NCBI GenBank assembly: GCA_030654175.1
Contig: JAURXZ010000008.1
Coordinates: 115,426-179,425 of the forward strand
Length of the DNA: 64,000 nt
Origin: Bacteroidia bacterium
Lineage (GTDB): Bacteria > Bacteroidota > Bacteroidia > 2-12-FULL-35-15
Direction: 5' to 3'
Part shown: positions 42,218 to 55,626 of the stretch, piece by piece
Position numbering within the stretch: position 1 is the stretch's first letter
Layout of the letters: every line of letters begins with the position of its first letter
Notes under the pieces: model-generated
Seen by the model: the letters and a program-made list of their open reading frames with translations, nothing else
The model's database searches: none
Told to the model about the DNA's origin: nothing
Position numbers and translations under genes: made by a program

Positions 42218-44008
42218 TTATGGTTTATAGGTTATAAATTGAAATGCATTTTGAATTTTAGTACCTACAGGGTCATATATAGTAACTGTAAGTTTTCCTG
42301 AACCATCATCATCCGTGGCGAATTTAACATTATTACCTATTGGTGTTACTATTGTTATATAATTTGAAGTTGTATAACTTTCAGATGCTATTGTGATCTT
42401 ATATCTGTTGTTTGATCCGCCATCCCAGGAAACTGTTATATTGCCGGTACTTGTATATACTACACCCGAAGAACTTATATTGCCGTAGGCAATTGGGACT
42501 AAGTTAGCTATTCCTGTTTGGGTTCTGTTCAACTCATTTGCATTAGTCCCTGCTATATTAATGGTACCATTCACCTCAAGTTTTGTTGTTGGAGCAACCG
42601 TTGTACCGATACCAACATTTCCATTTTGGTCAATACGCATTCTTTCAGTACCATTCATACTGCCGTTTGGAGTAGTCATGAATTTTAAATAAGATCCGTT
42701 GTTACCAAAGGAGAAGTTTTCAGAAGCAACTGCACCAATTTCTGTCTGATCATTGGTTGAAAAAACAGTACCATCATATCCGCTGAATTTGAGAAAACCA
42801 ATTTCATCACCTGAAGCAATAGCTAATGGTGAGGTTTCTGTCCCTTTTGCTTTTCTTAACCAGAGGTGAGAATCTGAAACTGAACTACTATTATATTCTG
42901 TTCCTACAATTCCATGCGGACCGTTCGAAGAGGTGCTCACCACTTCAAATTCTGCATCAGGAGTGGTAGTACCTATCCCTACTTTGCCTGTATTATTATT
43001 ATAAATATCATTACCGGAAGCAGTCCAAACACTATTAAATGTTGTTCCTGTTAAGGTTAAACCTGTGCCTGCAATATAGGAGGGAGATAGAGGTGTGGTC
43101 CAGGTTGCTAAACCGGTTGCATCAGAGGTTAATAATTTACCCAATCCCGGTGTGCCTCCTGTAATTTTTATTTGCCCGGCAATTTCCAACATCGCACCCG
43201 GGTTAGTTGTTCCAATACCTACATTTCCTCCGGATGGTTGTAAACTCATATTTCCATTGCTATAAACAGATAGCCTGGGTTCAAAAATACCACCTCTGAA
43301 AACTGTAAGATCAAACATGCTTTCGTTATTCGAAGTAGCACTTATGTTAAATGCTGTCCCTTCGTGTGTGCCGGTATTTAAATACAATGCCCTTGTTAGC
43401 GTATTGGTACCTGTTAATACTTCTAATTTATTTCCGGGGTTCATTGTTCCAATACCCACATTGCCTGTTGAATCAAGTACCATCCCAAGTGAATTGTTTG
43501 TTCTGAAGCGTAAGGGCGTGTTATTGGTTGTTCCTATAAAATCAGTTCCGCCACTGATATTGCCGATCAAAGACCAACTGTTGCTACTACTGTTTCCTGC
43601 TGTTTTGGCATACAAAGCGTAGGGCACACTCATCATTTGGATCCTTCCCATAGAAAGGTAATTGCTGCCACCAACGGTATCTACTTCTGTTTCTAAATAT
43701 TTATTTCCGGTTGCCCATGGAATTGAGGTAAAACTCGTGGTGCTGATGCTTCCAATCACCAATGTAAATAATCCATAACGGTTTGTATTTACAGAATTAT
43801 GTATTTCAGTGAATAGAGTTGCACCTCCTGTAATAGAATCCCAAATAGTAAATCGTACACTTAGGTTTACGCTATTGCTTATTGGTTTTCCACTGGTATC
43901 CCTCGCCACGGCCTGATAGTTAATGCCTTCAGGAGGAGCTTGAGCAAAAGAGAATACACTTATCAGCAGTAATATAAATGTGCCGATTGAAAAAAGTAAC
44001 TTTTTCAT
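42218..44008 (-). CDS. Fibre paralog A (596 aa): shared N domain plus tail-fibre-like GNVGIGT modules, no collagen
   Basis: Signal peptide SFA|Q; [14 protein letters not shown]...[14 protein letters not shown]; four G(N/K)VGIGT junctions; tip LVPIAYGNI...FQFITYKP. Confidence 0.88.
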   Translation of the reverse strand: MKKLLFSIGTFILLLISVFSFAQAPPEGINYQAVARDTSGKPISNSVNLSVRFTIWDSITGGATLFTEIHNSVNTNRYGLFTLVIGSISTTSFTSIPWATGNKYLETEVDTVGGSNYLSMGRIQMMSVPYALYAKTAGNSSSNSWSLIGNISGGTDFIGTTNNTPLRFRTNNSLGMVLDSTGNVGIGTMNPGNKLEVLTGTNTLTRALYLNTGTHEGTAFNISATSNNESMFDLTVFRGGIFEPRLSVYSNGNMSLQPSGGNVGIGTTNPGAMLEIAGQIKITGGTPGLGKLLTSDATGLATWTTPLSPSYIAGTGLTLTGTTFNSVWTASGNDIYNNNTGKVGIGTTTPDAEFEVVSTSSNGPHGIVGTEYNSSSVSDSHLWLRKAKGTETSPLAIASGDEIGFLKFSGYDGTVFSTNDQTEIGAVASENFSFGNNGSYLKFMTTPNGSMNGTERMRIDQNGNVGIGTTVAPTTKLEVNGTINIAGTNANELNRTQTGIANLVPIAYGNISSSGVVYTSTGNITVSWDGGSNNRYKITIASESYTTSNYITIVTPIGNNVKFATDDDGSGKLTVTIYDPVGTKIQNAFQFITYKP

Positions 44009-44214
44009 GATTGTGAGCTGAACGTTGCTAAGGTACTTTATAATGTTTAAACAATTAAATTCTTTTCGCAAATATTTTGAGCCGAAATTATCAATTGTTT
44101 GAAGAATAATAAGTAAACAAAAAAATTAATAAGTTTAAAAAATCGATATTCGTTTATTGCTAATTGGATGCGGCCTATTGCTGTTATTAAAAGAATGTGC
44201 TTTTATATGCATAA

Positions 44215-55000: not shown

Positions 55001-55626
55001 GCTGATCCTACTGAAACTCCACCGGCTACGTCCAATTTACTGAGAGGGGTAGAAGTGCCAATACCAACATTTCCTGCCGATTTTACGATCACTTTTTCGG
55101 TATTATTTGTTTTTATTAACAGGTCCGCAGAATTAGTGGTTCCGATAAAATCGGTTGGGCTGGTAATATTATTACCCGATACCGACCAATTACCATAAGA
55201 ATAAAGTGAAGTTTTTGAATGCAAAGCATAAGGCACGCTCATTAGTTGAGTTAAGCCCATCGAAGTATAGCTACTCCCACCAACAGTAGCCATTTCTACT
55301 TCTAAAAATTTATCACCGAGGGCCCAAATTATACTTTGGAAATCGGTGGTGTTAACACTTCCAATCACTAAGTTAAATAGGCCATAACGGTTTGTATTAA
55401 CCGGACTATGTGTTTCTGTAAAAAGGCTGGTTCCTGTTCCTGAATTATCAGGCCAGATGGTGAACCTTACCACCAGGTTGATGCTGCTGCTTATTGGTTT
55501 GCCGGCAGTATCACGAGCCACGGCCTGATAATTTATACCTTCTGGCGGAGCATATACTTGAGAAAAGGAGTTTATATTGATTAGCAAAAATATGAACGTG
55601 CTAATTGAAAAGAATAGTTTTTTCAT
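52087..55626 (-). CDS. Fibre paralog F: shared N domain, long tail-fibre-like shaft, C-terminal peptidase S74 intramolecular chaperone
   Basis: N domain; many GNVGIG units; CSDIRYKKDI (SD.R.K), IGFIAQDLE..YPEVV, SVDYSRLTPILVEAIKEQQ, terminal coiled coil. Confidence 0.92.
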   Translation of the reverse strand: MKKLFFSISTFIFLLININSFSQVYAPPEGINYQAVARDTAGKPISSSINLVVRFTIWPDNSGTGTSLFTETHSPVNTNRYGLFNLVIGSVNTTDFQSIIWALGDKFLEVEMATVGGSSYTSMGLTQLMSVPYALHSKTSLYSYGNWSVSGNNITSPTDFIGTTNSADLLIKTNNTEKVIVKSAGNVGIGTSTPLSKLDVAGGVSVGSAYSGITAAPTNGAIIEGTVGIGTSSPDPAAILDLSGQIKITGGNPGTNKVLTSDAAGLATWAIPDTGSVTSFSADSLAPLFTTTVSNATTAPALSFTLSDAAAYTVWGNNTGTSTTPAYFVPTLASSLFQNQGTTSTVLHGNATGNPAWGQIVNADITNASINLATKVSGMLPIVNGGTNTNTIGSAGSIPYSNTTGTAYGFSTVGTSGQVLTSGGTGTPTWTTPAAGTVTAVTGIAPIMSTNGTTPAISVATNSSTSDGVVTTGSGNLNMVWKTNGSGAPAWRNDSSATYTAGTGLTLSGTTFNSVWTQSANNIYNNNTSNVGIGNSVPTSKLHITPAGAVIGLTSSTLGTGSSGVFENFNASNSSSTLVGRTNGSGNAIFATNTGTWRAGTFTISNGANINDALYAETNGTGNAISGKNTSTGRAGSFQVLNAASTADGIEVTTNGSNSVGIEVAHTGATAGSIDYGTYVSNTGAGTTNVGGYYTATGATNNYAGIFDQGNVGIGTTAPSTQLHTTGGVRFQSLTGTGLRFILTDANGNLIPGIAPGAGGTLNYVAKFTPDGITLGNSSIFDTGTNVGIGTTTPTSQLQTIATGAKTADYSGAKFTNNATSASGTFTKAALELKSNGSWLGTNAANIGLYVSSVSGGTTNYDAIFNGGGNVGIGTTTPTSPLTIQTRVGNELEFVSTGSNANIHSNAQLDINSTTSLHLLTNGSTRLSVLTNGDVGIGTTAPALKLDVRGTNTKATTVAFENIFQVASTDAISPLTLRFGIKTDATASLRYGALEVVEGGSFKSLSLQPNGGNVGIGCIDPQYPLHVVGNMGVTGIIYATATALSLGVNSCSDIRYKKDITPLPSALSNVMKLNGVNYYWKTNEFPNKIFTNDKQIGFIAQDLEKIYPEVVFTDKDGYKSVDYSRLTPILVEAIKEQQKTIEAMQKQNDAMQKQNEEQHKTQRALIDSIQKEIELIKKK

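Follow-up and report, generated by a model that had tools for sequence, protein, structure and literature searches.

The window analysed in this study, which is the whole stretch of DNA at positions 1-64,000, carries on its minus strand at 42218-55626 an array of six co-oriented and intact open reading frames (ORFs) encoding fibre proteins of one common architecture (array positions are contig coordinates minus 115425). Each protein has a signal peptidase I (SPI) leader but none has a type IX secretion system (T9SS) C-terminal domain (CTD), a lipobox or a barrel. Comparative genomics suggests that the fibres are probably displayed in trans, through a small T9SS adaptor protein encoded on another contig (C44) and held on a PorP-PorE platform, with the conserved N-terminal domain (N domain) of the fibres at the base.

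The order in each of the six fibres is SPI leader, N domain, collagen-like or tail-fibre-like shaft and variable tip, and the intergenic gaps within the array are 128-276 bp. The fibres with their lengths in amino acids (aa), the N domains as located by sequence comparison among the fibres, and the genes of the window that bear on T9SS are given below.

42218-44008, minus strand: fibre A, 596 aa; SPI leader, N domain, GNVGIGT tail-fibre-like shaft without collagen, beta-rich tip
44215-45171, minus strand: fibre B, 318 aa; SPI leader, N domain, collagen GXT repeats (44590-44754), small tip
45448-48033, minus strand: fibre C, 861 aa; SPI leader, N domain, collagen segment, long shaft, tip
48162-49652, minus strand: fibre D, 496 aa; SPI leader, N domain, collagen segment, shaft, tip
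49829-51904, minus strand: fibre E, 691 aa; SPI leader, N domain, collagen segment, shaft, Phage_depo_C beta-sandwich tip
52087-55626, minus strand: fibre F, 1179 aa; SPI leader, N domain, long tail-fibre-like shaft, S74 chaperone/protease, coiled coil
52294-52473, minus strand: S74 self-cleaving chaperone of fibre F (Peptidase_S74, residues 1052-1111, E 1.2e-16; SDxxxK at 1052)
43592-43939 (A), 44758-45102 (B) and 47608-47952 (C), minus strand: N domains
49239-49583 (D), 51485-51835 (E) and 55207-55551 (F), minus strand: N domains
9646-11010, plus strand: T9SS plug gene (NF052315, 422 bits against a cut-off of 100)
31169-38989, minus strand: 2606-aa protein with type A CTD (TIGR04183, 40.9 bits against a cut-off of 23)

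The plug gene establishes that the genome has a T9SS, and together with the type A cargo it bears out what an earlier note on this DNA, made from the sequence alone, had read from the same two genes. The leaders of all six fibres follow the pattern M(K/R)K-hydrophobic-(S/G/Y)(F/Y)(A/S)Q, which is typical of signal peptidase I. They are also consistent with the Bacteroidota 'Q-rule', in which Gln stands at the predicted cleavage site. The N domain follows directly after the leader, is about 115 aa long, ends in ...SVPYALYAK and shows 68-96% identity among the six fibres. Collagen-like GXT repeats (Pfam Collagen) are found in fibres B-E, at residues 140-194 in B. GNVGIGT-type repeats are abundant in the shafts of all six and match phage tail-fibre PHROGs; these matches are confined to residues 259-540 in fibre A and cover residues 591-1166 in fibre F. 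The tips of A-E are of five different kinds, that of E being Phage_depo_C (PF25692, residues 603-682, E 4.4e-7), and fibre F ends in the S74 domain (SDxxxK) followed by a coiled coil, so that all six tips differ. From the collagen repeats, the S74 domain and the tail-fibre matches, the fibres are predicted to be probably trimeric.

The absence of export tags, which the earlier note had presented as a puzzle, was confirmed by inspection of the leaders, by Pfam and NCBIfam scans and by custom hidden Markov models (HMMs), and its description of the C-terminus of fibre F as a self-cleaving chaperone was likewise found to hold. No CTD of type A (Por_Secre_tail), type B (CHU_C/Bac_Flav_CTERM) or type C was found in the six fibres at E<=1 with Pfam and NCBIfam, the models covered being TIGR04183/PF18962, TIGR04131/PF13585 and NF033708. 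HMMs built from the CTDs of the partner proteins described below gave the fibres at most 8.5 bits against 49.3 bits for the protein at 31169-38989, which served as the positive control for CTD detection. A cryptic CTD, considered in the earlier note, was ruled out by these scans, the best score (8.5 bits) being that of fibre A. This score is a partial match of the last ~40 residues of fibre A (42218-42340; ...KLTVTIYDPVGTKIQ...) to the first half of a type A CTD, and the segment is too short and incomplete for a sorting domain. Among the 271 homologues found for the N domain of fibre D, none of the 120 best carries a CTD Pfam domain, and in almost all of these 120 the N domain starts 17-33 residues from the protein start. 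There is no lipobox, none of the six fibres having a Cys in its first 30 residues, and no autotransporter barrel family was matched in them (Pfam, E<=1), the C-termini being small tips or S74 with a coiled coil. A lipoprotein (signal peptidase II) and an autotransporter or trimeric autotransporter of the type V secretion system were ruled out on these grounds. Likewise, no phage, extracellular contractile injection system (eCIS) or tailocin genes were found within the window, and a prophage, tailocin or eCIS origin of the fibres was rejected on gene context and the Sec leaders.

The candidate partner emerged from the neighbourhoods of the N domain. When the neighbour genes of the best 80 N-domain loci were clustered into families, the top family, present at about 38 of the 80 loci, was a small protein (mini-protein) of about 155-205 aa, usually encoded by the gene immediately upstream, in the same orientation. 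Its parts are a signal peptide, a conserved mini-domain of ~47 residues (...LSYTVGE...LTQGFQQP), a short linker and a T9SS CTD. The CTDs score above the curated cut-offs, with 43-58 bits for Por_Secre_tail (type A) and 91-95 bits for CHU_C (type B), whereas the mini-domain matched no Pfam or NCBIfam family. Thus the gene-neighbourhood and phylogenetic-profile analysis which the earlier note had proposed for the N domain returned a short CTD protein with a 47-aa mini-domain as the dominant neighbour. After the mini-protein, the conserved fibre-neighbour clusters are regulators only, with no alternative export gene among them. Most mini-proteins have a type A CTD and no adjoining PorP gene, and are still found next to fibres.

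The association was also found when 301 genomes of the phylum were sampled: the N domain occurs in 87 genomes and the mini-domain in 40, of which 39 also have the N domain (Fisher p = 1.6e-23). Of the 69 mini-domain genes in this sample, 63 have a same-strand N gene at a distance of no more than 7 kb, and for 53 the distance is no more than 1.5 kb. The pair is present in other classes of the phylum as well, with NYPNPFNP-style CTDs. The distances among N domains and among mini-domains co-vary (Mantel r = 0.46, p <= 5e-4, 49 pairs), and the same is seen across the eight paralogous pairs within this one genome (Mantel r = 0.79, p = 0.009), a comparison in which species phylogeny is excluded as the reason. 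A contact between N domain and mini-domain is inferred from this comparison of sequences. The PorP/SprF model TIGR03519 failed as a T9SS marker for the phylum, matching 74 of 75 genomes of the window's class and only one genome of the other classes; it is unusable phylum-wide because other classes with CTD-bearing mini-proteins are left unmatched.

Several loci illustrate how the pair may be arranged. At L095 and L096 (genomes G055 and G027, family f28, of another class) a single-copy pair stands in a constant neighbourhood across the whole family, and consists of a mini-protein with NYPNPFNP-type CTD followed by a 534-780-aa fibre ending in a coiled coil. On contig C27 of the genome under study, a single stop codon (C27:431199-431201) separates an in-frame type A mini-protein gene from the next fibre gene, whose start codon lies five codons past that stop, so the genes are very tightly coupled. 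Cultured carriers of adjacent pairs are Taibaiella koreensis THG-DT86, Reichenbachiella faecimaris DSM 26133, Emticicia sp. C21 and Cnuella takakiae RG1-1.

The genome has 17 N-domain genes, six in the array and 11 elsewhere, and exactly nine mini-domain genes, which stand cleanly above noise (E <= 2.5e-11 against >= 1.6). Eight of the nine adjoin N paralogs outside the window, and eight of the 11 non-array N paralogs have one adjacent. Within the window itself the mini-domain HMM has no match, and a short CTD gene would not fit into the 128-276-bp gaps of the array, in agreement with the earlier statement that no partner barrel or short CTD carrier lies inside it. The ninth mini-domain gene, on contig C44, is the sole orphan copy with no fibre beside it, and it stands in the following module.

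C44:38794-39558: mini-protein, 254 aa; mini-domain, SprB-like immunoglobulin-like (Ig) domain, type B CTD (CHU_C 90.7 bits, TIGR04131 54.6 bits)
C44:39619-40599: PorP/SprF-like barrel (TIGR03519, 257.9 bits)
C44:40700-43381: PorE-like TPR/propeller/OmpA protein (PorE model 344.8 bits, CHU_0125_OmpA 437.8 bits)

Both scores of the PorE-like protein are under the equivalog cut-offs, but the protein does have TPR and OmpA_C. At C44:43839-46001, after the PorE-like gene, comes the gene of an exported Cys-rich protein of 720 aa without an NCBIfam match. In the AlphaFold2 model of the 254-aa protein, the Ig domain and CTD have a predicted local distance difference test score (pLDDT) of 83-97, and the mini-domain, which is strongly conserved, has 41-67; in the model such a low-confidence mini-domain might fit a segment that folds on a partner.

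The assignment of this module to the array comes from other genomes of the same genus. In G322 the order on one strand is PP2C sensor, type B protein, the fibre genes N1245 and N1236, the mini-protein m254, PorP309 and PorE-like893, and in G311 it is TPR, PP2C, N1429, m250, PorP314 and PorE-like941; in G307 the contig ends in the first part of a C44-type mini-protein that comes after an N fibre. The mini-protein, PorP and PorE-like proteins of G322 and G311 best match the C44 module (50-57%, 58-69% and 51-62% identity), the next paralogs being at about 34%, and the G322 fibres best match the window array. As far as gene order can tell, this synteny is the decisive evidence tying the C44 module to the array: the sensor-linked fibre locus ends in the putative adaptor and platform in the congeners, and the module stands apart from the fibres here and in some relatives. 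In the N-domain tree the array falls in a clade with L013-L017. The L013, L016 and L017 genomes have a C44-type mini-protein of 253-257 aa (L104, L107 and L108 among the loci fetched); no fibre gene stands beside it in the locus fetched in these three cases, and PorP follows it at L104 and L108, which belong to the L013 and L017 genomes. The L015 genome has a 280-aa candidate, judged from open-frame length only. These results support the suggestion of the earlier note that a T9SS-exported carrier or platform is encoded elsewhere, through the dominant neighbour, the orphan C44 module and the congener synteny.

A possible course of events for the array can be proposed from these data. Sec would export each fibre to the periplasm, where signal peptidase I would cut the leader. 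The N domain would form the cell-proximal end and may bind the ~47-residue mini-domain (...IDYTVGE...LTQGFQQP) of a small T9SS cargo, the array's partner being most likely the 254-aa C44 protein (38794-39558). This protein would leave via T9SS and be held on its cognate PorP/SprF-like barrel (C44:39619-40599), and the PorE-like protein (C44:40700-43381) would tie the barrel to the peptidoglycan, as for type B cargo. The N domains would dock on the presented mini-domain, with the variable tips pointing outward as in mosaic adhesive trimer (MAT) fibres. Crossing of the outer membrane by the fibre together with its adaptor, through the T9SS pore, is preferred over separate arrival and docking because the adaptors are equipped with a type A or type B secretion CTD and the surroundings of the fibre genes show no other conserved export gene. 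In the general form of this proposal, an adaptor in trans carries folded CTD-less trimers through the SprA pore and keeps them on anionic lipopolysaccharide (type A) or on PorP/SprF-PorE (type B), one adaptor serving the whole array; this we regard as possible but rather doubtful, and as less secure than the display of the fibres on the C44 platform.

The platform part of the proposal has the same gene logic as the known PG1035-PorP-PorE and SprB-SprF systems (Gorasia et al. 2022, PMC9143113; Paillat et al. 2025, PMC12618676). Secretion of type B CTD proteins by T9SS involves a cognate PorP/SprF-like protein, to which they remain attached on the surface, and for non-mobile cargo PorE links PorP with the peptidoglycan (PMC9143113; PMC12618676). 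On C44 the corresponding genes are present, namely those for a type B CTD protein and, beside it, its cognate PorP/SprF-like barrel and a PorE-like protein. However, adhesin or cargo and CTD protein are one and the same in the known type B cases, whereas here the CTD protein is tiny and the fibres are separate and CTD-less. The export of a folded complex on the signal of one subunit resembles the hitch-hiker co-translocation of the PaoABC type in the twin-arginine translocation (Tat) pathway, although the machine and the membrane are different and the T9SS version is a hypothesis here.

The fibres themselves resemble the MAT fibres of Bdellovibrio bacteriovorus, in which the signal peptide of 21 paralogs is followed at once by a beta-rich domain of ~130 aa (Caulton et al. 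2024, PMC10769870). The MAT fibres comprise S74 and non-S74 subgroups, have swappable tips and are displayed on the surface, and their N domain has already been proposed as the cell-proximal attachment end (PMC10769870). Without their leaders, the N domains of the window fibres match NF053851 (Bdello_MAT_N) at 30-42 bits (E 1e-7 to 1e-11), and this is the sole NCBIfam family matching the N-domain region. In a scan of the whole genome NF053851 matched 12 of the 17 N-domain paralogs and nothing else, and in 14 control genomes it had no match. Fibres from other Bacteroidota classes show an equally sub-threshold match. The AlphaFold2 model of the N domain (pLDDT 86.8) has six strands and one helix; no relative was found in the PDB by sequence, and the best Foldseek TM-score was 0.45, to generic Ig-like folds. 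The two groups thus have in common a signal peptide, a beta-rich N domain without PDB relative, a long fibre and a swappable tip, as well as S74 and non-S74 members and many paralogs (21 in Bdellovibrio, 17 in this genome). The window fibres differ in the sub-threshold match, in the collagen-like segments of four of the six and in the Bacteroidota host with T9SS. By sequence comparison they are distant, MAT-like relatives that lie below the curated membership threshold, and by analogy a MAT-like surface display with the C-terminus outward is predicted for them. For the window fibres, unlike the MAT fibres, a specific candidate for the surface partner is at hand in the mini-domain T9SS protein.

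The window fibres also share features with phage tail fibres and tailspikes such as K1F endosialidase and the T5 L-shaped fibre, namely the S74 domain in F, the PHROG shafts and tips and the Phage_depo_C tip in E. In contrast to phage fibres, the genes are chromosomal, have no phage neighbours and encode Sec leaders, and the virion-attachment domain is replaced by the N domain, which has no PHROG match. The PHROG matches essentially avoid the N domain, so that this domain is not regarded as belonging to a phage. At the protein level the N domains of fibres A and B share 96% identity, the other copies being at 68-79%, but the shafts and tips of A and B are unrelated, which suggests a recent gene conversion or module exchange at the N-domain end.

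In the species-genome scan at least 587 N-domain loci were confirmed, and the best 80 of them are from Bacteroidota except one metagenome-assembled genome (MAG) labelled Bifidobacteriaceae. Remote N-like domains were found outside Bacteroidota in high-GC genomes (L115:6001-7200 and L116:6001-8619; E ~5e-5 in a search of 5.8 billion proteins), where one opens a collagen-like protein and the other an S74 fibre. L115 is record CP051526.1 of Planctomycetota, with a protein named from a Tepidisphaera sp. MAG.

A number of observations weigh against the display of the array through the C44 adaptor. The match of the N domain to NF053851 fails the curated cut-off (25-45 bits, other Bacteroidota included, against 60). 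No member of the array clade in the N-domain tree has an adjacent mini-protein, so the tree was not decisive as a means of assigning the partner type of the array, and the C44 assignment rests on synteny in congeners. Of the congener fibres, the one beside the mini-protein in G311 has a shaft that best matches the C5 paralog, with 61% identity to the array in the N-domain region, and C44-type proteins are also found in genomes of the genus with a weaker best N match. Not every mini-domain partner has a recognisable CTD; the ~205-aa mini-domain proteins next to fibres at L048:6946-7563 and L048:11139-11753 have a different C-terminal domain, without YPNP or NRWG motifs. No mini-domain gene was found near the N-like domains at L115 and L116. 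Bdellovibrio is not known to have a T9SS. Finally, no precedent for T9SS hitch-hiking was found in the literature searched.

These points bear on whether the module exports the fibres or serves them as a docking site only, the fibres crossing the outer membrane by another signal or pathway: the N domain might be read directly by T9SS or by a PorP-like shuttle, or a separate pathway might be used. The surface display of MAT fibres in Bdellovibrio (PMC10769870), the occurrence of N-like domains in phyla without T9SS and with no mini-protein adjoining, and the missing precedent for hitch-hiking are all in line with this explanation. We nevertheless consider it unlikely, as no alternative export gene is conserved by the fibres, where only regulators follow the mini-protein, and as what the adaptor consistently bears is more than a membrane anchor, namely a type A or type B secretion CTD. 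The same N-like domains in phyla without T9SS and without a mini-protein beside them indicate that the N domain is probably a docking module, evidently able to use other partners, and is not intrinsically a T9SS address. The earlier proposal of the N domain as the export or anchoring address is supported by gene association, but not in the sense of an intrinsic T9SS address.

It could also be argued that the array is served promiscuously by one or more of the eight other mini-proteins, or that its partner has been lost and the fibres are released or non-functional. The array clade without adjacent mini-protein, the nine mini-domain genes of the genome and the spread of C44-type proteins in the genus whatever the best N match would agree with this. 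It appears improbable in view of the pairwise co-diversification of N domain and mini-domain within this genome and of the C44-type module at the orthologous locus in G322 and G311; moreover, identity between the array N domains and the paired paralogs of this genome is no higher than 36-40%, all six ORFs are intact and their N domains are conserved. Even less probable is a linkage that reflects co-regulation without contact, in which the mini-protein is a PorP cap or accessory and the fibres stay in the periplasm, are carried by vesicles or, like the fibres of tailocins or eCIS, become free on lysis. PG1035 has been proposed as a cap for PorP (Gorasia et al. 2022, PMC9143113), and the shafts and tips do resemble phage tail fibres. 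Against this stand the many type A mini-proteins which have no PorP gene beside them and are still next to fibres, the lack of phage, eCIS or tailocin genes in the window, the Sec leaders and the pairwise co-diversification, which points to contact. Display on the PorP-PorE platform through the C44 adaptor is therefore the explanation which we hold to be the more probable one.

Upstream of the array, and co-oriented with it, three further genes are found.

58911-59441, minus strand: 176-aa gene
57981-58886, minus strand: TPR-type protein, 301 aa
56076-57869, minus strand: HAMP/PP2C sensor, SiaA-like (216 bits, under the curated cut-off)

They are likely regulators of the fibre locus, and their counterparts also precede fibre genes in L017, L056, L091, L112 and L113. 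The retention of these three genes at the fibre loci of at least five other genomes suggests a sensor-controlled fibre expression. In the window fibre F follows directly after the sensor, with no counterpart of the genes L112:15759-18341 and L056:5107-7923, and at the equivalent position L017 and L091 have proteins of 789 and 860 aa.

The components described here are of known kinds, namely MAT-like fibres, type B cargo and PorP/SprF-PorE platforms. The pairing of CTD-less fibres with a minimal CTD adaptor was not found to be described in the literature searched, which agrees with the undescribed display route suggested in the earlier note, whereas an attachment-end role of the N domain had already been proposed for MAT fibres (PMC10769870). 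To the pairing the window adds, on sequence evidence, an unlinked, type B, platform-associated version and the synteny that ties the module to the array.

T9SS cargo is defined by an in-cis CTD, and a phylum-wide family of adhesin-like, CTD-less fibres would, if true, break this rule; the family counts 17 genes in the genome under study, occurs in 87 of the 301 genomes sampled and has at least 587 loci in the species-genome scan. The mini-protein linked to the fibre genes provides a testable answer to the questions of how CTD-less proteins reach or hold the Bacteroidota surface and what a MAT-type N domain binds. The six fibres, whose tips are swappable, would probably share a single type B adaptor and its PorP/SprF-PorE platform, and if this is true, one deletion would remove all six. 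If the hitch-hiker reading is true, it would be the first piggy-back secretion by T9SS, and it would provide a lead to the MAT anchor.

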